The notes: generated by a model from the sequence alone, not told the origin. Shown: positions 28,813 through 38,114, numbered from the stretch's first letter. The stretch is DNA of 56,154 nucleotides from Bacilli bacterium (GCA_045612885.1 JAZKZZ010000005.1:1-56154), one strand, 5' to 3'. Numbers and translations: made by a program.

Positions 28813-29697
28813 ATGAAAAAAATTTTAGGACTTAGTACTCTTGCTTTAGCTGGAGTATTAGCATTCACAGGATGTTCTTGTAAAGACAAGGGAGAAGAAT
28901 TATCTCAATTACCTGCAGCAAGATTAGGAAACGCAGAAGGTTGTTATTCTAATGACTATGATAAGACATGTTCTTCAATCAATTCAAAAAATTTAAATGA
29001 ATACTTAGGTAGAAGTGATGTAGATTACATCGATGTAAGAAATTTCAGTGACTATGAATTTGAACATTTAGAAGGATTCAGAAACGTACAATTCTTTGCT
29101 GATATTTGGAATAAAGATGGCGTAGCTGGTGGAAAACAATTATTCAATAAGGATTATACTCCTAAATATAAAGATTCAGTAAAAATATTAGAATCTTACT
29201 TTCCTAAAGATAAGACACTATTCTTAATGTGTGCTTCTGGAGGAAGAGTAGTATGGTTAATGGATATTCTTGAATTAAATGGATGGGATATGACTAAGAT
29301 TTATAATGTTGGTGGTATGGGAGACTATACTGATGCAAAATATGATAGTTATAGAGTGAGCAAGTCTAATGCAGCTTTAACATTTAAAACAGCAACTATC
29401 ACTGAAGGAAATTATACTGCTACAGCACATATTGCTTTAGATAAAGATAATAAAATTACAAATATTTATGTAACAGGAAGTGAAATGACTCCTGGAGTTT
29501 CAGATAAGTGGAATCAAGATACTTGGTTAAAAGCTAAATATGAATATTGCCAAAAATTAGTTGGTAAAACTAAAGCTGATATCCAAGAAATGGTTAACGG
29601 CGATGAAGGAGCTAAAGGTGAAGATGTTGTAACAGGTGCTACAACAACTTCAAATAGAGTATTAGAGGCTGTTCTAGCAGCATTTGATGCTCAATAA
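28813..29697 (+). CDS. lipoprotein: rhodanese domain fused to a C-terminal FMN-binding (flavinylation-type) domain
   Basis: Signal peptide with lipobox LAFTG|C. Rhodanese pattern (VDYIDVRNFSDYEFEHLEGF) with CX4R loop CASGGR at 29230-29247. C-terminal FMN_bind-like domain ends in DVVTGATTTSNRVLEAV at 29632-29652. Confidence 0.7.
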   Translation: MKKILGLSTLALAGVLAFTGCSCKDKGEELSQLPAARLGNAEGCYSNDYDKTCSSINSKNLNEYLGRSDVDYIDVRNFSDYEFEHLEGFRNVQFFADIWNKDGVAGGKQLFNKDYTPKYKDSVKILESYFPKDKTLFLMCASGGRVVWLMDILELNGWDMTKIYNVGGMGDYTDAKYDSYRVSKSNAALTFKTATITEGNYTATAHIALDKDNKITNIYVTGSEMTPGVSDKWNQDTWLKAKYEYCQKLVGKTKADIQEMVNGDEGAKGEDVVTGATTTSNRVLEAVLAAFDAQ

Positions 29698-29726
29698 TTT
29701 ACAATAAGATCATAATTTAATAAAAT

Positions 29727-29750
29727 AGAAAGGGAAACCTTTCTTTTTAT
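29727..29750 (+). terminator. intrinsic terminator
   Basis: AGAAAGG-GAAA-CCTTTCT followed by a T-run. Confidence 0.7.
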
Positions 29751-29768
29751 TTTTTAAGGAGTGATTAG

Positions 29769-30428
29769 ATGAAAAAAGGACTAATTGTGTTATCAATGTT
29801 TATCTGTTTATTATCTGGGTGTAATAAGACAATAGAGGAGAAAGAAAGTAATCAGATAGTTATACCAACAAAAGCTAATTCTTTGGATAATTTTCCTAGT
29901 GAATCTACTATTAATACTATGAATTTAGATCAATACATGTTTAGGGAGGATGTTCAATATGTAGATTTAAGAAGCATGAAAATGATAGCTAATGAGGGAC
30001 ATGTAGCAGGTTTTGAATTCATACCATTTTATTCACTTATTGCATCTTTTACTGAGGGAACAACATTGTATCAAATGAAGGGACAATATAATGACAAAGG
30101 AGAATTTGTTTCGGGTGGTCAAGTTGGCGGATTTGTTGCGCAATACAAGGAATCAAAAAGAATAGTAGAAGCTTTATTTTCAAAAGATAAATATATATTT
30201 TTGATATCTCAAGGAGGTTCAGAGTCAAGTTATATGATAAATTTGTTGATACAACTTGGTTATGATGGAAATTTATTATATAATGTAGGTGGAGTTATGA
30301 ACAATGAAGGAATCCCAAGTTACTCAAGTATTAAAACTAATAAATATTTTGTTCAAGGACATGGTGATTTAAATATGAAAGTTAGTTATGATTTTATGAA
30401 TGAATTAACTCCAATAACAAATAATTAA
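29769..30428 (+). CDS. lipoprotein with catalytically degenerate rhodanese-homology domain
   Basis: Lipobox LLSG|C. Paralogous to the previous gene (IFLISQGGSESSYMINLLIQLGYDGNLLYNVGG versus LFLMCASGGRVVWLMDILELNGWDMTKIYNVGG), but Cys->Ser and Arg->Glu in the active-site loop. Confidence 0.65.
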   Translation: MKKGLIVLSMFICLLSGCNKTIEEKESNQIVIPTKANSLDNFPSESTINTMNLDQYMFREDVQYVDLRSMKMIANEGHVAGFEFIPFYSLIASFTEGTTLYQMKGQYNDKGEFVSGGQVGGFVAQYKESKRIVEALFSKDKYIFLISQGGSESSYMINLLIQLGYDGNLLYNVGGVMNNEGIPSYSSIKTNKYFVQGHGDLNMKVSYDFMNELTPITNN

Positions 30429-30445
30429 TATAAGGAGGAAAGTGT

Positions 30446-31309
30446 ATGAAAAAATTATATAAATTATTAGCAGGATTTTTAACTTGTGTTCTAGTTTTCG
30501 CTGGTGTTGCTTGTAAAAAAGGAGATGATGGTTCATCTACTGATTCAGGAGCTGGATGTGGAAGTGGAACAATGACTTTAGAGGAAATAAATAAGTATTT
30601 AAACGATAAAGATGAATTTGATATGTCAAATGCAGTTGCATTAATTCCATTTGCACATATAAATGGCCCTCAAAAAATATGGGACTTTTATGCTTTAATT
30701 AATTATGTTTATACTAACAGACCAGATGGTTATGTAAAATATCAAGTTACATATTTATCATGTACATGTAGAACTGCAGATGTTAACTATTGGCAAACTG
30801 CATATGTTGAAATTACAATACCTGAAAGTGGTAATGTTGAAGATGCTGTTTTGAAAACATTATCATTTGATAAAGATATTCAAGATTCTGATTTAGCTCC
30901 TGGAGACACTAATTACACAGCAGGTTTCTGGGGAGATTCAAGTCCAATTTTTGATGAAGCAACTCATACTGTAAAATTCACTACTTACGATAAAGTAGAA
31001 GTTCAAGAAGGCGATAAATATCGTGAACACACAAGTGATACAGAAACAGAAAAATATTATTTAAATAAAGAAGATGGAAAATTCTATTTCCCTAGTATGA
31101 AATATGATTTTATTCCTAAATTAATTGGAATGAACCAAGCTGAAATTCATAAATATGCTTCTGTTAAAGATTCTAATGGTGCTTTACTTACTGATGGAAT
31201 ATTTACTCAACGTGAATATGATCAATTCCACGGTTCTTCAGTTTCAACACATAATATTATAAGAATTTTAGATTCATTATTTAAATATCACGTAGATACA
31301 TATTTATAG
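30446..31309 (+). CDS. lipoprotein with divergent FMN-binding-like C-terminal module
   Basis: Lipobox AGVA|C. RBS AAGGAGG lies 18 nt after the previous stop. The C-terminus DQFHGSSVSTHNIIRILDSL aligns with DVVTGATTTSNRVLEAVLAA of the first lipoprotein. Confidence 0.55.
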   Translation: MKKLYKLLAGFLTCVLVFAGVACKKGDDGSSTDSGAGCGSGTMTLEEINKYLNDKDEFDMSNAVALIPFAHINGPQKIWDFYALINYVYTNRPDGYVKYQVTYLSCTCRTADVNYWQTAYVEITIPESGNVEDAVLKTLSFDKDIQDSDLAPGDTNYTAGFWGDSSPIFDEATHTVKFTTYDKVEVQEGDKYREHTSDTETEKYYLNKEDGKFYFPSMKYDFIPKLIGMNQAEIHKYASVKDSNGALLTDGIFTQREYDQFHGSSVSTHNIIRILDSLFKYHVDTYL

Positions 31310-31330: not shown

Positions 31331-31360
31331 AAAAGATGTAACAAATGTTACATCTTTTTT
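31331..31360. terminator. strong bidirectional terminator between convergent genes
   Basis: AAAAGATGTAAC-AAAT-GTTACATCTTTT with a T-run. Confidence 0.85.
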
Positions 31361-32796
31361 ATTTCATATATCACTTCATAATCAAATATATTTTTGTGGT
31401 ATTTAGAATGATTTGTTTTCAAATATTCTTCAATATCATTTATTTCCTTTAACCCTCCATTATGTCTAGAATAACCAATGATAATGATTTTACCATCGTT
31501 GTTTAAGAGCGTATATGCTTTTTTTATTGCTTGTATTGTAGTATAGCTATTAGTAGACACTTTTTTATCACTACCTGGTAAGAATCCTAGATTAAATAAT
31601 ACTAAATCTATTTTTTCTTTTACATATTTATCTAAGTTAGAGTGACTATCATGAATAATTGATATATTGTTTAAATCTTTTAATCTTTCTTTACTTCTTT
31701 TTATTGCTAATTCTTGAATATCAAATGAATATATATGTTTAAATAAGTTAGATAAAAACAAAGTATCATAGCCATTACCTAAAGTAGCATCAATAGCAAT
31801 TTTATTATGATCTGCAAAATTACTTATTAATTTGTGAGAATACTCTACCGATTTAGATAGAGTTTGTTTTTCTAATGCTTTGCCTTGATAGGTATTTCTT
31901 TTTACCATTTCTTTATCTATATCGTTTAATAATTGAGTTTTATTAGTATTCCAATTAGGAGCAATTAATTCCTCTTTTAATGGATCTGAAGTTAATCTTT
32001 GAATTATTATTTCAGGACGTAATACTTCTAGTTGTTTTATAACTGTATCTATGTATTCATCTTTTGTTTGTAAAGGGAAAGGGTTTTGTAAATATTGATT
32101 ACCCCATAAAGATTCTTTTATGATGCTTAGCGAGTGTATCTTAATGCCTTGAATATCTAGTTTATTTAGTTCTTTACATGTGTTTATCATAGATTCTTGA
32201 GATTCATCCTTTAATCCATTAATAATATGAACAGTTACATTGATATCTTCTTTTCTTAATGCATTAACTCTATCGATAAATAGGTTATTATCATAGCCTC
32301 TATTGAATGATTTTGCTATTTCTTCATTGAATGTTTGTAGTCCTATTTCTACCCATAAATCTTTTCTTTTATTAATAGAAGATAAATACTCAATAATATT
32401 ATCATCTAAGCAATCAGCACGAGTGGCAATTGAGATCACTTCAATATCCTCTCTATTTATAAATGGCTCATAAATTTGTTTTAGTTTTTCTATGCTTCCA
32501 TACGTATTAGAAAAGGCTTGAAAATACGCTATAGATTTAGCTTTTGGCCATTTTAATTCCATGATTTTTTTGATTTTTTCAAACTGGATAGAAAGCGTAT
32601 CATTTACATCTCCACCATTTTCTCCAGCACCATAAACACTACAAAAAGCACATCCATTATAACCCTTTTTTCCATCTCTATTAGGACAAGAAAAACCAGC
32701 ATTTAAAGATACTTTAAAAACTTTACTATTATATTTATTTTTTAAATAGTAATCAAAAGTGTGATATCTCTTATTAGTGTTAGAATACTTAAACAT
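31348..32796 (-). CDS. fusion protein: TIGR01212-type radical SAM enzyme (YtqA-like) plus YtqB/MnmM-like SAM-dependent methyltransferase
   Basis: N-terminal CPNRDGKKGYNGCAFCS cluster motif and about 300-aa radical-SAM body. The C-terminal ~170 aa carry DATLGNGYDT, FDIQ and FNLGFLPGSDK, typical of the putative rRNA/tRNA methylase YtqB family. Confidence 0.8.
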   Translation of the reverse strand: MFKYSNTNKRYHTFDYYLKNKYNSKVFKVSLNAGFSCPNRDGKKGYNGCAFCSVYGAGENGGDVNDTLSIQFEKIKKIMELKWPKAKSIAYFQAFSNTYGSIEKLKQIYEPFINREDIEVISIATRADCLDDNIIEYLSSINKRKDLWVEIGLQTFNEEIAKSFNRGYDNNLFIDRVNALRKEDINVTVHIINGLKDESQESMINTCKELNKLDIQGIKIHSLSIIKESLWGNQYLQNPFPLQTKDEYIDTVIKQLEVLRPEIIIQRLTSDPLKEELIAPNWNTNKTQLLNDIDKEMVKRNTYQGKALEKQTLSKSVEYSHKLISNFADHNKIAIDATLGNGYDTLFLSNLFKHIYSFDIQELAIKRSKERLKDLNNISIIHDSHSNLDKYVKEKIDLVLFNLGFLPGSDKKVSTNSYTTIQAIKKAYTLLNNDGKIIIIGYSRHNGGLKEINDIEEYLKTNHSKYHKNIFDYEVIYEIKKM

Positions 32797-33529: not shown

Positions 33530-34357
33530 ATGGGAAAACTAGTTATTAATAACTTAGAAGTAAGTGTAGAAGATAAGAAGATTCTTAAGGGAATTAATTT
33601 AAATATAAATGATGGTGAGATACACGCTCTTATTGGGCCTAATGGTCATGGTAAGTCTACATTATTAAACGTAATTATGGGACATCCTAAATATTGTGTT
33701 AATAGTGGTAGTATAACTTATAATGATGAAGATGTTTTAAGTATGAGTGTAGATAATAGAAGTAAGAAAGGAATATTTTTAGCCATGCAACATCCAATGG
33801 AAATAAGTGGAGTTAAAAATATTGATTTCTTAAAGGGTGCTATTAATGCAAGAAATGAAAAACCTATTAGTTTATATAAGTTTATTAAAGAAGTAGAGAA
33901 TGTTAGTAAAGAAGTAGGTTTTGACTCTAATTTGATATCTAGAAATCTAAATGAAGGATTTTCTGGAGGAGAAAAGAAAAGAAATGAAATTTTGCAAATG
34001 AGATTATTAAATCCATCCCTAGCTTTAATTGATGAGATCGATTCAGGTCTTGATGTAGATGGGTTAAATATGATTGCTAGTGCGATTAATAATAGTAATA
34101 ATGGTGAATTTAGTGCTTTAATTATTTCCCACTATTCTAAACTTTATACGCTTGTTAAACCTACACATGTCCATATTATTGTAGATGGAAAAATAGTTAC
34201 TAGTGGAGATTATAAACTTATTGAAAGAGTAGACAGAGAAGGATATTCTTGGATTGAAAGAGAATATGGTGTATCTATAACAAAAGAAGAAACTAAAAAA
34301 GTTGTAAGTTTAGGAACTTGTGCTGTAAAGGAAAGTATTGGACATGGAAATAATTAA
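33530..34357 (+). CDS. sufC: Fe-S cluster assembly ATPase SufC
   Basis: Walker A GPNGHGKST, signature FSGGEKKR and Walker B LALIDEIDSGLD. First gene of the suf cluster. Confidence 0.93.
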   Translation: MGKLVINNLEVSVEDKKILKGINLNINDGEIHALIGPNGHGKSTLLNVIMGHPKYCVNSGSITYNDEDVLSMSVDNRSKKGIFLAMQHPMEISGVKNIDFLKGAINARNEKPISLYKFIKEVENVSKEVGFDSNLISRNLNEGFSGGEKKRNEILQMRLLNPSLALIDEIDSGLDVDGLNMIASAINNSNNGEFSALIISHYSKLYTLVKPTHVHIIVDGKIVTSGDYKLIERVDREGYSWIEREYGVSITKEETKKVVSLGTCAVKESIGHGNN

Positions 34358-35093
34358 TATTGATAAGGATTGTAAGATAGTGTTAGATACACAAGCAAAT
34401 GAAGTTGAAATTAATATAAATAAGTGTAAGGTTATAATTAGTGATATTTCTTCTTCAAATAAGGTTATAAATGTTAATGAAGGAGAATTAGATTATTGCT
34501 ATATAAAAAAGAATGGTAACCTAAATAGGCATGTTATTAATGCAAGTGAAAGTGAAGTTAAAGTTAGAGTTATAGATTTGTATAGTAATAGTAGTGAAAA
34601 TAAATATCTTATTAATATGAATGATGAAAATAGTTATGTTGATTTAAGCATTGCTAGTATAAGTAAGAAAAACGTTAAAAAAGAATATAAGATTAACACT
34701 AACAACAACGTAAGAAATACAGGGGTTAAAATAGATTGCTTTGGAATAGTAGAAGATAATAGCAGTTTAAGTTATGATATTACTTCTTTTATTAAAAAAG
34801 GTGCTAAACAATCTAGAGTTAATCAAAATAGTAAAATCTTGTTATTTGATAAAGAAAGTATAGGAATTAATAATCCTGTACTTGAAATAGAAGAAAATGA
34901 TGTTAAAGCTAATCATGGTTCTAGTATAGGAATGATTGATGAAGAGACTTTATTCTATTTAACTAGTAGAGGCATTAAAGAGAGTGATGCTAGAAATCTT
35001 GTTAGCATAGGAAGAGTTAATTATCTTATTGAAGAAGTAAAAGATGAAAGAATAAAAGAAGAATTATTAAAAGAAGTTTTGGAAAGGGTGTGA
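34344..35093 (+). CDS. sufD: Fe-S cluster assembly protein SufD (short form)
   Basis: Position between sufC and sufS. C-terminal SufBD-type beta-helix and helical tail (ANHGSSIGMIDEETLFYLTSRGI). ATG-34344 follows AAGGAAAG. Confidence 0.7.
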   Translation: MEIINIDKDCKIVLDTQANEVEININKCKVIISDISSSNKVINVNEGELDYCYIKKNGNLNRHVINASESEVKVRVIDLYSNSSENKYLINMNDENSYVDLSIASISKKNVKKEYKINTNNNVRNTGVKIDCFGIVEDNSSLSYDITSFIKKGAKQSRVNQNSKILLFDKESIGINNPVLEIEENDVKANHGSSIGMIDEETLFYLTSRGIKESDARNLVSIGRVNYLIEEVKDERIKEELLKEVLERV

Positions 35094-35097
35094 GTTT

Positions 35098-36300
35098 ATG
35101 AAAGATTATCGTAAAGATTATCCGTTTTTTAAAAATAATCCAAATACGATATTTTTTGATAATGCTGCTACAGCCTTAAAACCAAAGTGTGTAATAGATG
35201 CAGTAACTTATTACTATGAACATTTGTCTTGTAATGCTCACAGAGGTGATTATAACTTATCATATTTAGTAGATAAGGAAATTGCAAGTGCTAGAAAAGA
35301 TGTGGCGGAATTTATAGGTGCTAATGATTATGAAGTTGCTTTTGTTAGTGGTACTACAGAAGGATTAAATATGATTGCAAGTGGGTATGTATCTAAAATT
35401 ATTAATGAAGGCGATGAAATTTTAATTAGTGAATTAGAACATGCTTCAAATGTGTTACCGTGGTTTAAAATTGCTAATGATAAGAAAGCTAAAGTTAAGT
35501 ATATTACTTTAGAAGATAATAAAATTACTCTTGATGCAATAAGGAAGTCTATAACAGATAAGACTAAGGTTATATCTTTAGCTTATATATCTAATGTTTT
35601 AGGATACAAGATACCTGCTAAAGAGATAGCTAAGTTAGCACATGAACACAATATAATTTTCATTTTAGATGGAGCTCAATCTACTCCTCATATTAGAGTG
35701 GATGTTAAGGATTTAGATTGTGATTTTTATGTATTTAGTGCTCATAAAATGGGTGGCCCTACAGGAATTGGAGCTTTATATGGAAAAGAAGAACTATTAG
35801 CAGAAACAGATGCTTATACCTTGGGTGGAGGAATGAATAAGAAGTTTAGTAAAGATACTCATTATGATGTATATAACTCTGTTAGAAAGTTTGAAGCAGG
35901 TACTCCAAATATTGAAGGAATATTTGGTTTTCATGCAATTGTAAAGTATATAAATCAAATTGGATTTGATTATATTGAAAAAAGAGAAAAAGAGTTAAGA
36001 CAAAGAGCGTTAAATGGATTAAGAAAGTTAGATAATATAGTAATTTATAATGATGATTTAGATGCTTATACTATTTCATTTAATGTTAAAGATGTATTTA
36101 GTCAAGATGCTGCTAGTTTATTTAGCAAATATGATATTTGTTTAAGAGCAGGTCAACATTGTGCTAAATTAATTGATGGAGTACTTGGAACTTATGCTTC
36201 ACTTAGATGTAGTTTCTATTTTTATAATAGTGAAGAAGAAGTAGATAAATTTGTTAAAGTTGCAGCAAAAGGAAGTGATTTTTTAGATGCCTACTTTTAA
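35098..36300 (+). CDS. sufS: cysteine desulfurase SufS
   Basis: PLP-lysine motif SAHKMGGPTG and catalytic-Cys loop RAGQHCA. About 400 aa, class V aminotransferase. Confidence 0.92.
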   Translation: MKDYRKDYPFFKNNPNTIFFDNAATALKPKCVIDAVTYYYEHLSCNAHRGDYNLSYLVDKEIASARKDVAEFIGANDYEVAFVSGTTEGLNMIASGYVSKIINEGDEILISELEHASNVLPWFKIANDKKAKVKYITLEDNKITLDAIRKSITDKTKVISLAYISNVLGYKIPAKEIAKLAHEHNIIFILDGAQSTPHIRVDVKDLDCDFYVFSAHKMGGPTGIGALYGKEELLAETDAYTLGGGMNKKFSKDTHYDVYNSVRKFEAGTPNIEGIFGFHAIVKYINQIGFDYIEKREKELRQRALNGLRKLDNIVIYNDDLDAYTISFNVKDVFSQDAASLFSKYDICLRAGQHCAKLIDGVLGTYASLRCSFYFYNSEEEVDKFVKVAAKGSDFLDAYF

Positions 36301-36721
36301 GGATAATCCCCTTCTTATAAGGGAAGTTATTATGGATCATTATGAATATCCAAGAAATAAAAAGTTAAAAAATGATTCTAGTTATAAGAGAGTTAATTTA
36401 GATTCTGAATCTTGTATTGATAATATAGATTTAGAAGTTAAAATTGAAAATGGAGTAATTAAAGATATATGTTTTGATGGAGTGGCATGTACGATATCTA
36501 CAGCTTCTGCATCAATTATGTCAGAATTATTAAAAGATAAAAGTGTAGAAGAGGCTAAGCATATTATAGATAATTATTTAGCAATGCTTCATGGAGAAGA
36601 ATATGATGAGGAATTGTTGGAGGAAGCTAATGCTTTTGTTAACACTGGTAAACAAGCTAATAGGATAAAGTGTGCTACTTTATCATGGAATGGGTTAAAA
36701 GATATATTAGATAAAGAATAA
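36287..36721 (+). CDS. sufU: SufU-type sulfur acceptor/scaffold
   Basis: 144 aa, IscU/NifU-like with three Cys (SESC.., GVACTIS.., IKCATL). Located between sufS and sufB. Confidence 0.85.
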
Positions 36722-36734
36722 GGGAGGTATCTTT

Positions 36735-38114
36735 ATGAAAGATGAATATCAATATGGTTTTAAAGATGAAGATGTTTCTCTTTTTAATAGTGGCAAAGGA
36801 TTAAACGAAGATGTTATTAAATTTATTTCTAAGAGTAAAAATGAACCCGAATGGATGTTAGAGTACAGATTGAAAGCATACAATTATTTTAAAGAACAAC
36901 CATTACCTAATTTTGGACCTGATTTGAGTGAAATTGATTTTAATGACTTTACATATTTTATTAAGCCAAGTGATAAAGTTAGTAATAATTGGGATGAAGT
37001 ACCTGAAAGTATTAAAAATACTTTTGATAAATTGGGTATAAAAGAAGCTGAACAAAAATATTTATCTGGCGTATCTACTCAATATGAGAGTGAAGTAGTA
37101 TATCACTCTATGTTAAAAGAAGTAGAAGAAAAGGGAATTATATTCTTAGACACAGATAGTGCATTAAGACAATACCCAGAAATATTTAAAAAATATTTTT
37201 CTACTGTAGTTCCTTATACTGATAATAAATTTGCAGCATTAAATAGTGCAGTATGGAGTGGAGGATCATTTATATATGTTCCTAAGAATACCCATCTAGA
37301 TAAGCCACTTCAATCATATTTTAGAATTAACTCTCAATCTATGGGGCAATTTGAAAGAACTTTAATTATTGTAGATGAGGGTAGTGATGTACATTATGTT
37401 GAAGGATGTAGCGCTCCAATTTATTCTAAAGATTCGCTTCATGCAGCGGTGGTAGAGATTGTAGTATTAAAGGATGCAAAATGTAGATATTCTACAATTC
37501 AAAATTGGTCTACTAATATTATCAATCTGGTTACTAAAAGAGCATTAGTAGAAGAAAATGGATTAATGGAATGGATTGATGGAAATATTGGTTCACATAT
37601 CAATATGAAATATCCTTGTTGTGTCTTGAAAGGAGATAGTGCAAAAGGAGCTTGTATTTCTATTGCAGTAGCAGGAAAAGAACAAATTCAAGATGCTGGT
37701 GCTAAAATGGTTCATATTGGAAAAAGAACTAGTTCTACTATTATTTCTAAATCCATTGGAAAACAAGGTGGAAATGTAGATTATAGAGGACTTGTTAAGA
37801 TTACTAAGAATGCTACAGGCAGTAGAAGCAAAGTAGAATGTGATACTTTATTAATAGATGATTTATCTAATAGTGATACTATTCCTACTAATATTGTTAT
37901 GAATAATAATTCAATTTTAGAGCATGAGGCTAGTGTTAGTAAGATAAGTGAAGATGAATTGTTCTATTTAATGTCTAGAGGATTAGATAAAGAAAAAGCT
38001 GCTCAAATGATAGTAATGGGATTTATTGAACCATTTGCCAAAGAATTACCTATGGAATATGCAGTAGAGCTAAATAACCTTATAAAACTCGAAATGGAGG
38101 GAAGTATTGGATGA
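36735..38114 (+). CDS. sufB: Fe-S cluster assembly scaffold SufB
   Basis: 459 aa with characteristic YGF N-terminus, [12 protein letters not shown], and [21 protein letters not shown]. Confidence 0.95.

Follow-up and report, generated by a model that had tools for sequence, protein, structure and literature searches.

Here we describe three consecutive lipoprotein genes, which we call g1, g2 and g3, at positions 28813 to 31309 of a 56,154-nucleotide stretch of DNA from a Bacilli bacterium (GCA_045612885.1, JAZKZZ010000005.1:1-56154; hereafter the window). They encode a predicted active-type rhodanese fused to an FMN_bind domain, a seemingly inactive rhodanese paralogue, and a member of a Cys-x-Cys protein family remotely related to FMN_bind, whose defining domain we term the g3-core. 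We tentatively propose, at a little less than an even chance, that this triad is a lipid-anchored extracytoplasmic flavin/dithiol/persulfide relay that reduces sulfane sulfur to sulfide. The proposal builds on the domain composition, on the conservation of catalytic and attachment residues, on signals for extracytoplasmic targeting, on ApbE and EetB being encoded in the genome, and on the coupling of the g3-core with active rhodaneses across genomes. An initial annotation, made from the window alone, had read the genes as an extracytoplasmic redox or sulfur-handling module. Our analysis supports that reading and refines it: g2 appears catalytically dead, g3 emerges as the core of the system, and the substrate is possibly broader.

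Three lipoproteins with rhodanese and FMN_bind-type modules

The three open reading frames (ORFs) follow one another on the + strand (Table 1) and have similar N-termini, each with an MKK start, a hydrophobic stretch and a lipobox cysteine (LAFTG-C21 in g1, LLSG-C18 in g2 and FAGVA-C23 in g3). A Shine-Dalgarno-like GGAG or GAGG lies close upstream of each gene. The initial annotation had listed three successive lipobox genes: a rhodanese with a CASGGR loop joined to an FMN_bind domain with an [ST]GA[ST] motif, a rhodanese paralogue, and a protein with a divergent FMN_bind-like C-terminus. Each of these assignments is borne out by the searches that follow.

Both domains of g1 score above their Pfam thresholds: Rhodanese (PF00581) with 27.1 bits against a cut-off of 22.2, and FMN_bind (PF04205) with 38.2 bits against a cut-off of 22, the latter recovered at the same place by a whole-genome scan. 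In the rhodanese domain a cysteine opens a six-residue CX4R active-site loop, and C140, G143 and R145, together with D271 of the FMN_bind domain, are invariant in 25 homologues. By these sequence features g1 is an active-type rhodanese. A Cdc25-type arsenate-reductase or phosphatase loop was considered for g1 and rejected, the loop being CX4R and not CX5R. A PDB profile search with the g1 family matched the flavinylated protein CPE2226 (3o6u), a domain of a multi-FMN protein (8p2b; FMN, flavin mononucleotide) and a CoA-disulfide reductase (CoADR)-rhodanese (6pfz). The AlphaFold2 (AF2) model of g1 (pLDDT 82) matched rhodaneses in Foldseek, including 3mzz, 3foj, bovine rhodanese 1orb, mercaptopyruvate sulfurtransferase, 4jgt, 5wqj and Npsr (3nt6/3nta).

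The C-terminal motif of g1 fits [S/T]GA[S/T], the target motif of the flavin transferase ApbE (PMC8238504), and its final position is Ser or Thr in all 25 homologues. Covalent FMN is predicted on Thr277 from this motif, in a protein that carries a lipobox and in a genome that encodes ApbE. A pair of further cysteines, Cys44 and Cys53, is found in 66 active-class rhodanese ORFs and in none of the inactive class; it could be a structural disulfide or an additional redox relay.

The paralogy of g2 and the rhodanese part of g1 is evident from BLASTP (E 5e-20, 29% identity over 203 residues). Scans of g2 itself gave no Pfam match and nothing usable from NCBIfam, while the orthologues of g2 at related loci are recognized, at about 1e-24, by a rhodanese hidden Markov model that we derived from homologues of g1. 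The active loop of g2 is degenerate, with Ser in place of the catalytic Cys and Glu in place of Arg, and the same is seen in its orthologues and in all 51 inactive-class ORFs of related loci (consensus [IM][SA][TQ][AG]G[VS]E), in which Ser or Ala replaces Cys and Glu replaces Arg, leaving none with the catalytic cysteine. The sole cysteine of mature g2 is the lipid-modified C18. To judge from its loop, g2 is an inactive rhodanese-homology domain, a partner domain and no second enzyme. Orthologues of g2 are present in every triad locus, and in Erysipelotrichaceae and Treponema they adjoin ApbE.

The third protein belongs to a compact family, with 308 homologues at 90% clustering; at 50% identity, 1.84 billion representative proteins yield no more than 122 clusters of it. 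Its invariant residues include H71, C106-T-C108-R109, W116, W162-G-D-S165, S265-V-S267 and H282, and the Cys-x-Cys is kept in all 86 g3-core ORFs from the genome loci. Toward the C-terminus the family carries a flavinylation-type motif whose consensus, D-x-F-T-G-A-S, is the textbook ApbE motif; S265 is invariant, and G263 and D259 are at least 90% conserved. The flavinylation pattern is matched by 79 of the 86 g3-core ORFs, with variants that are mostly T/S-G-S/A-S/T (TGSS in 32, SGSS in 21, TGAT in 9, and others).

The kinship of g3 with FMN_bind is supported by several lines of comparison. The C-terminal third of g3 aligns with the FMN_bind domain of g1 over 72 columns (hhalign probability 95%, E 3.7e-8), and the alignment places G263-S-S265 of g3 onto G275-A-T277 of g1. 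Distant g3-like rhodanese fusions score near the FMN_bind cut-off of 22 (P0223, 21.8 bits; P0227, 22.3 bits), and 23 of 55 aligned family members match FMN_bind at E<=0.1, partly via fused N-terminal domains. Because a full-length profile comparison of g3 with g1 returned only an N-terminal match, driven by the signal peptide and lipobox, the kinship rests on the cut-domain comparison and these intermediate sequences. The AF2 model of g3 (pLDDT 78, pTM 0.76) shows a beta-sheet followed by a helical C-terminus, and a PDB sequence-profile search with the family gave one chance antibody match only. Since the homology is remote, with no Pfam or fold match for g3, we name it an FMN_bind-related expanded domain with a Cys-x-Cys centre and not a plain FMN_bind member.

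Beyond the signal peptides, residues 43-85 of g3 (window 30572-30700) also resemble residues 56-98 of g1, the start of its rhodanese domain (BLASTP E 4e-4, and hhalign), with TLEEINKYLN...HINGP...FYALI in g3 facing NLNEYLGR...HLEGF...FFADI in g1. The N-terminus of a rhodanese may survive here as a remnant, or the two proteins may share a docking element.

Conservation of the module across genomes

We surveyed loci from one genome per species, scoring all ORFs with our own profiles, and found the g3-core in 80 loci. The initial annotation had suggested looking for co-occurrence of the three genes, and their recurrence at about 80 loci far exceeds chance. Carriers include uncultured Bacilli, Erysipelotrichaceae (Holdemania filiformis DSM 12042, H. 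massiliensis, Dielma fastidiosa, Solobacterium, Bulleidia and Erysipelothrix), rumen and gut Treponema, Peptoniphilaceae, Christensenella, Oscillospiraceae and other Clostridia; Treponema sp. HNW, Proteiniclasticum ruminis and Alkalibaculum sporogenes are further named carriers. The locus titles are those of faecal, rumen and digester metagenome-assembled genomes (MAGs), and several metagenomic contigs keep the three genes in synteny. Throughout the loci, module proteins bear a lipobox or a type-I signal peptide.

An active-type rhodanese adjoins the g3-core or is fused to it in almost every locus that extends past the g3-core gene, the exceptions being L059, L063 and L067, and the CxxGxR loop is carried by 82 active-class rhodanese ORFs. 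In 16 loci, mainly of Clostridia, the g3-core and the rhodanese form one polypeptide. A canonical FMN_bind domain (about 75 bits) is fused N-terminally to the g3-core in 27 loci of Erysipelotrichaceae and Treponema, and in the window lineage FMN_bind is fused to the rhodanese rather than to the g3-core. As far as sequence conservation can tell, g3 and not the g1 fusion is the evolutionarily constant core, and the g1 fusion is a lineage-specific domain arrangement.

ApbE adjoins the module in 37 loci, usually with a g2-like dead rhodanese as operon partner. The loci of Holdemania and Dielma contain a dedicated ApbE and no canonical FMN_bind domain, which argues that the g3-core itself is an ApbE substrate. 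In L012 the gene order is apbE, rhodanese-rhodanese-FMN_bind, g2, g3, rnfCDGEAB, eetA, eetB. Rnf adjoins the module in few loci only (L012, L041, L070, G005 and G031), lying within a few kb of it in G005 and G031. Within the order of the window genome, ApbE is encoded by all 14 g3 carriers, compared with 108 of 151 genomes overall, and RnfD by 12-13 of the 14. In two non-carriers of the same genus g3, ApbE and RnfD are jointly absent.

The only recurrent neighbours are ApbE, the dead rhodanese, EetA/EetB, occasional Rnf and, at seven loci, an MsrA-rhodanese protein. The latter is a membrane-anchored fusion directly beside g3-core-rhodanese genes (L066, L076, L078, L082, L086, L088 and L089), hosted by Clostridia and one Erysipelotrichaceae MAG; at L078:1614-2591 (minus strand), for example, its MsrA domain scores 197 bits (PF01625) and its active loop reads CRSGARS. 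Two paralogous modules from a single bacterial family bring in thioredoxins. At L093:4135-5493 (G034:C3) a thioredoxin-like CxxC domain is joined to the g3-core, and three unannotated proteins of about 520-540 amino acids and an ApbE are encoded downstream; at L094:3089-4891 (G016:C1) an operon encodes a thioredoxin lipoprotein, a rhodanese-like lipoprotein and a 198-amino-acid g3 paralogue with a single cysteine.

Other genes were seen near individual modules. In Oscillospiraceae, a gene for an FMN_bind-FAD_binding_2 'flavin reductase' (fumarate-reductase-like, of the extracytosolic type; Pfam) lies about 1.5 kb upstream of a g3-core-rhodanese fusion (L089:3425-5317, minus strand). An ORF of the same size occupies the matching position in Christensenellaceae (L074:3412-5304, minus strand) and is known by size and position only. 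In Solobacterium, a NIR_SIR-type (sulfite/nitrite reductase) gene (L009:1-909 and L010:1-862) is found about 6 kb upstream of a module composed of ApbE, dead rhodanese, FMN_bind-g3-core and rhodanese.

Flavin delivery and other redox proteins in the genome

The source genome (0.95 Mb, 44 contigs, 91% complete) is small, and its nearest public relatives are faecal MAGs titled "Bacilli bacterium". No ApbE gene was found in the window, as the initial annotation had observed. That annotation had named a genome devoid of any ApbE-type flavin transferase as grounds for refuting its reading, and a search of the whole genome found such a transferase on another contig. The sole ApbE (PF02424, 82.6 bits) is a lipoprotein of 471 amino acids with a large insertion in the ApbE domain, encoded on contig C2 in the order rnfC-D-G-E-A-B, apbE, NusG_II (EetA-like) and PF07456 (EetB-like) (L005 4407-11849, equivalent to G000:C2:10406-17848). 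The two genes after rnf and apbE are homologues of EetA and EetB, which act in the export of flavin adenine dinucleotide (FAD). PF07456 corresponds to EetB, the substrate-binding component of the exporter that provides ApbE with FAD, and its gene habitually co-localizes with apbE and eetA (PMC9973259). From its gene content, this part of contig C2 is a complete flavin-delivery cassette attached to Rnf. A whole-genome scan with Pfam identified only two FMN_bind proteins, g1 and RnfG.

Contig C34 (19579-21745) encodes a rhodanese-like lipoprotein, a thioredoxin-like lipoprotein and then a multi-pass membrane protein. The loop of the first of these, LMCGGGGYAG, keeps the cysteine and lacks the arginine; the thioredoxin-like lipoprotein has the motif SGCLSC, and the membrane protein contains CNCGCC. 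Searches of the window genome found no DsbD/CcdA (PF02683) that could reduce an external thioredoxin, and no MsrA. A CysK-like gene is present (213 bits, under the equivalog cut-off of 351), and sulfide could therefore be assimilated.

Layout of the locus

The window has a G+C content of about 28%. The gap between g2 and g3 is 17 nucleotides, and a hairpin with a T-run separates g1 from g2. This hairpin is weaker than the one 3' of g3, which closes both the triad and a convergent gene (consensus scan). The triad is flanked by an SDR gene on one side and by that convergent gene on the other (window 31348-32796, minus strand), in which a radical-SAM domain is fused to an rRNA-methylase-type domain. 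The latter stays beside the triad in L006 and L007, even with different upstream genes. A SUF operon (sufC, sufD, sufS, sufU, sufB, named by homology to annotated L007 genes) lies 2 kb downstream of the triad at window 33530-38114. A functional tie between the triad and this operon was considered and rejected, the synteny being confined to close relatives (L007) and not found in L006, L011 or L012; such a link is unlikely.

Table 1. Features of the three-gene locus, in window coordinates.
Feature	Positions	Strand	Basis
g1, lipoprotein, active-type rhodanese with C-terminal FMN_bind, 294 aa (predicted)	28813..29697	+	ORF, Pfam, about 25 homologous fusion proteins
g1 lipobox LAFTG-C21	28858..28875	+	Sequence; N-terminal M-K-K and lipobox Cys conserved in homologues
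g1 Cys44...Cys53 pair, N-terminal to rhodanese domain	28942..28971	+	Invariant in 25 homologues
g1 rhodanese domain, residues 61-165	28993..29307	+	Pfam PF00581; PDB profile matches 3foj, 8w14, 6pfz (CoADR-rhodanese)
g1 catalytic loop C140-A-S-G-G-R145 (CX4R)	29230..29247	+	Sequence; homologue alignment
g1 FMN_bind domain, residues 204-291	29422..29685	+	Pfam PF04205; PDB profile matches 3o6u, 8p2b
g1 flavinylation motif D271-V-V-T-G-A-T277, predicted FMN-phosphoester site Thr277	29623..29643	+	Sequence; motif conserved in homologues
Hairpin and T-run between g1 and g2 (putative partial terminator)	29727..29744	.	Consensus scan
g2, lipoprotein, predicted catalytically inactive rhodanese paralogue, 219 aa	29769..30428	+	BLASTP to g1
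g2 degenerate active loop I-S-Q-G-G-S-E (Cys to Ser, Arg to Glu)	30204..30224	+	Alignment with g1 and orthologues
g3, lipoprotein of g3-core family, expanded FMN_bind-related domain with Cys-x-Cys centre, 287 aa	30446..31309	+	Homologues, hhalign, AF2
g3 C106-T-C108, then invariant R109	30761..30769	+	Invariant in 55 aligned homologues
g3 flavinylation-type motif D259-Q-F-H-G-S-S265	31220..31240	+	Alignment to g1 motif, family conservation
Bidirectional terminator-like hairpin, 12-bp stem, T-runs on both strands	31331..31358	.	Consensus scan; closes triad and convergent radical-SAM gene

A proposed persulfide-reducing relay and its alternatives

In the relay that we propose, ApbE would load FMN onto Thr277 of g1 and Ser265 of g3, and g1 and g2 would combine as the two domains of a tandem rhodanese do, one active and the other inactive. 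Cys140 would become persulfidated with sulfane sulfur, drawn from polysulfide, thiosulfate or organic persulfides. Electrons would come from the membrane, the likeliest source in this quinone-poor, small-genome fermenter being the outward-facing flavin of RnfG, and could pass from the FMN of g1 to a centre formed by the FMN of g3 and Cys106-x-Cys108, which would reduce the rhodanese persulfide and free sulfide. The release of H2S from rhodanese-type persulfides by thiol reductants has a precedent in the proteins that g1 matches by model and profile, Npsr (3nt6/3nta) and the CoADR-rhodanese 6pfz. Rnf, with its RnfG and RnfD flavins, is put forward as the likely donor because no other outward-facing redox centre was identified in the genome. 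Physiologically, the relay might be an electron sink, might provide a sulfur auxotroph with sulfide, or might do both.

Several points weigh against this proposal. We infer the covalent FMN, the formation of a persulfide and the release of H2S, as well as the role of Rnf and the direction of electron flow, which a sequence does not reveal. The proximity of Cys106 and Cys108 to the flavin site of g3 is an assumption of the model, and the reduction of thiosulfate is thermodynamically demanding for a flavin. With regard to g3, there is no Pfam or NCBIfam match, and FMN_bind (PF04205) gives nothing at E<=1; its model retrieved no FMN_bind fold from the PDB with Foldseek, and no match better than E 0.84; and its HGSS departs from the canonical [ST]GA[ST]. 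The hairpin between g1 and g2 may uncouple transcription of the two genes, and in the window genome the triad and rnf/apbE are on separate contigs. The module contains no conserved gene for membrane electron transfer, and unbiased clustering of neighbours over the 80 loci, together with Pfam scans of neighbours in Clostridia and others, revealed no conserved membrane electron donor. Neighbourhoods in Clostridia are heterogeneous, and in the window's order only 14 of 151 genomes, from 8 of 47 genera, have the module, a patchy distribution in which two genomes of the same genus are without it. Finally, the MsrA-rhodanese fusions and thioredoxin partners point to a broader function in thiol repair.

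This last point leads to the possibility that g3, once flavinylated, is the outside equivalent of thioredoxin reductase or DsbD/CcdA, a general extracytoplasmic thiol reductase or repair system. Its clients would be thioredoxin-like lipoproteins, MsrA and oxidized surface cysteines, and Cys140 would then be a thiol or sulfenate relay and no carrier of sulfane sulfur. The gene associations described above can be read in this way: MsrA-rhodanese fusions adjoin g3-core-rhodanese genes at seven loci, thioredoxin-like domains occur in the L093 fusion and the L094 operon, and the thioredoxin-like and rhodanese-like lipoproteins of contig C34 are encoded in a genome with no DsbD/CcdA (PF02683) as reductant. 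Furthermore, a hybrid flavin/thioredoxin/CXC system (DUF3570, DUF4266) has already been proposed on bioinformatic grounds (PMC8238504). However, a strict CxxGxR loop with its arginine and a dead-domain partner are hallmarks of sulfane-sulfur transfer and not of disulfide exchange, the MsrA and thioredoxin links are confined to a minority of loci or to paralogues, and the window genome is itself without MsrA. We therefore consider general thiol repair unlikely as the principal function. It is feasible that the terminal substrate of the relay is broader than sulfane sulfur, given the thioredoxin and MsrA links in relatives, and the g3-core-thioredoxin-like fusion and the thioredoxin/rhodanese/g3-paralogue operon support a dithiol-relay role of the core.

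Alternatively, the module could run in the oxidative direction and oxidize sulfide or thiols outside the cell, in the manner of sulfide:quinone oxidoreductase (SQR) or flavocytochrome c sulfide dehydrogenase with a rhodanese, or of an Erv/QSOX-type sulfhydryl oxidase. Sulfide would attack a disulfide of the Cys-x-Cys, the persulfide would move to the rhodanese, and electrons would leave via FMN to Rnf or another extracellular flavoprotein. A flavin, a redox-active cysteine pair and a rhodanese also make up sulfide-oxidizing systems, the hosts, according to their faecal, rumen and digester MAG titles, inhabit sulfide-rich gut and rumen, and the FMN_bind-FAD_binding_2 reductase near the L089 module (with the ORF of the same size, by position, in L074) could accept electrons. 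We nevertheless think this route improbable: the hosts are strict fermentative anaerobes, the module has no quinone or oxidase partner, no electron acceptor is conserved among loci, and the transfer of electrons from sulfide (about -270 mV) into Rnf/NAD+ is unfavourable.

A substrate other than sulfur is a still fainter prospect. An oxyanion or a metalloid, such as arsenate, selenite or tellurite, might be the target of the cysteine in the rhodanese/Cdc25 fold, or else His71 and His282 of g3 might join its Cys-x-Cys in binding a metal; the task of the flavins would then be to reduce a metal or metalloid, or to aid its uptake. The six-residue CX4R loop is that of a sulfurtransferase, not the seven-residue CX5R loop of phosphatases and arsenate reductases, and neither a transporter nor a metal gene accompanies the module consistently, as against the two invariant Cys and two invariant His of g3, a siderophore-type ABC importer that precedes the fusion gene in L045, and the mobilization of selenium by rhodaneses. 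Flavinylated systems are, in addition, often linked with iron reduction (PMC8238504).

That the three genes are chance neighbours with no joint function, their flavinylation-like motifs unused and g3 a structural surface protein, is scarcely credible: the triad is unlinked to apbE in the window genome, g3 is without a Pfam match and a hairpin separates g1 from g2, but four independent fusion types (rhodanese-FMN_bind, FMN_bind-g3-core, g3-core-rhodanese and g3-core-thioredoxin) have arisen, the genes stay adjacent in Bacilli, Erysipelotrichaceae, Clostridia and Treponema alike, the module has ApbE genes within it, and the CxC, Ser265 and Cys140 are invariant.

Returning to the persulfide-reducing relay, a more ambitious form of it is conceivable, and we consider it doubtful as a whole. 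Here the g3-core would be a new ApbE substrate, derived from FMN_bind and equipped with a Cys-x-Cys, and the first covalently flavinylated dithiol reductase outside the cytoplasm. Joined by a dedicated ApbE and by both rhodaneses, the active and the dead one, and supplied with electrons by Rnf or by other flavins that face outward, it would constitute a self-contained class of flavin-cysteine relay outside the cytoplasm, converting sulfane sulfur to sulfide or repairing surface thiols. If so, the g3-core would be a functional counterpart of thioredoxin reductase or DsbD, and the hosts of the relay would be Bacilli, Erysipelotrichaceae, Clostridia and Treponema of the gut and rumen, often without DsbD/CcdA.

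Comparison with known systems

ApbE-dependent flavinylation has recently come to be seen as a third major extracellular electron route beside cytochromes and thioredoxins, and many of its systems have no assigned chemistry. If our proposal is correct, the module would add sulfur chemistry (persulfide, polysulfide or thiol) to the flavinylation-linked systems, would define a new flavinylated domain bearing its own cysteine pair, and would suggest that Rnf is able to supply surface enzymes with electrons. Its carriers include common anaerobes of the gut and rumen, among them the cultured Holdemania filiformis DSM 12042, Dielma fastidiosa, Proteiniclasticum ruminis and Treponema sp. HNW. A role in H2S production, in the sulfur acquisition of reduced-genome bacteria or in envelope redox repair is therefore directly testable.

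The initial annotation had considered the system uncharacterized, and full-text literature searches agree, returning no description of it and nothing relevant that links flavinylation or ApbE with rhodanese, persulfide, polysulfide or thiosulfate. Rhodanese is not mentioned in the main text of the 2021 survey (PMC8238504), whose supplement has it as an unrelated neighbour only, or in the 2024 structural follow-up (PMC11334425). The module is apparently undescribed: ApbE-flavinylated extracytosolic redox systems are known, and what is new is the type of flavinylated domain and its coupling to sulfurtransferase chemistry. Known extracytosolic FMN_bind proteins flavinylated by ApbE include RnfG, NqrC and Listeria PplA (Meheust et al. 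2021, PMC8238504; Huang et al. 2024, PMC11334425). The triad resembles these in its extracytoplasmic, lipid-anchored FMN_bind domain with a Dxx[ST]GA[ST] motif, in the ApbE and EetB of its genome, and in the dedicated ApbE inside the module of many relatives. It differs in the partners to which the flavin domain is fused or with which it is paired, a sulfurtransferase and an FMN_bind-derived domain with an invariant Cys-x-Cys. None of the ten system types of the 2021 survey includes a rhodanese, and the NapH-like, MsrQ-like, PepSY-like, DsbD or Nqr/Rnf-like membrane partners described there are not conserved here. More generally, no key membrane or enzyme gene of the ten types is conserved over the 80 loci, DsbD being absent and Ndh2 and DmkAB not having been searched for.

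The nearest described idea is the cluster of DsbD, DUF3570, a thioredoxin-like protein and DUF4266 (CXC), proposed to be a hybrid of covalent flavin and cysteine pairs (CXC, CxxC) in extracytoplasmic electron transfer with ApbE (PMC8238504). The logic of a flavin combined with a cysteine pair is common to both. In contrast to that hybrid, the triad module has no DUF3570, DUF4266 or DsbD, places the CXC and the flavinylation motif on one polypeptide, and has a rhodanese as its constant partner.

A flavin, redox cysteines and a rhodanese are likewise combined in one system in CoADR-rhodanese fusions such as the NADH-dependent persulfide reductase Npsr of Shewanella loihica (3nt6/3nta) and NoxA-3 of Archaeoglobus (6pfz), where the persulfide on the rhodanese cysteine is reduced by a flavin/thiol centre and whose rhodaneses g1 matches by structure and profile. 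Those enzymes are cytoplasmic, NAD(P)H-fed, and of the pyridine-nucleotide-disulfide oxidoreductase fold with non-covalent FAD, whereas the triad would lack an NAD(P)H site and hold its FMN covalently, in an FMN_bind fold outside the membrane. Pfam found no Pyr_redox domain in g1-g3, and the resemblance to Npsr is functional only. Exported, periplasmic single-domain rhodaneses that bind sulfane sulfur on one cysteine are represented by Sud, the polysulfide-sulfur transferase of Wolinella succinogenes, and by E. coli PspE. Sud passes its sulfane sulfur to a reductase, the molybdoenzyme Psr. To our knowledge, PspE has no dedicated redox partner, and neither protein is paired with or fused to a flavinylated protein or a dead rhodanese lipoprotein.

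In tandem thiosulfate sulfurtransferases, such as bovine rhodanese (1orb) and 3-mercaptopyruvate sulfurtransferase, an inactive and an active domain cooperate, as proposed here, and a dithiol reductant, thioredoxin, frees H2S. In the triad, unlike these enzymes, the inactive and active domains are separate lipoproteins (g2 and g1), and the proposed reductant is a flavin/Cys-x-Cys protein and not thioredoxin. By analogy, the triad would be the counterpart, outside the cell, of the CoA-disulfide-reductase/rhodanese persulfide reductases and of mercaptopyruvate sulfurtransferase with its thioredoxin.

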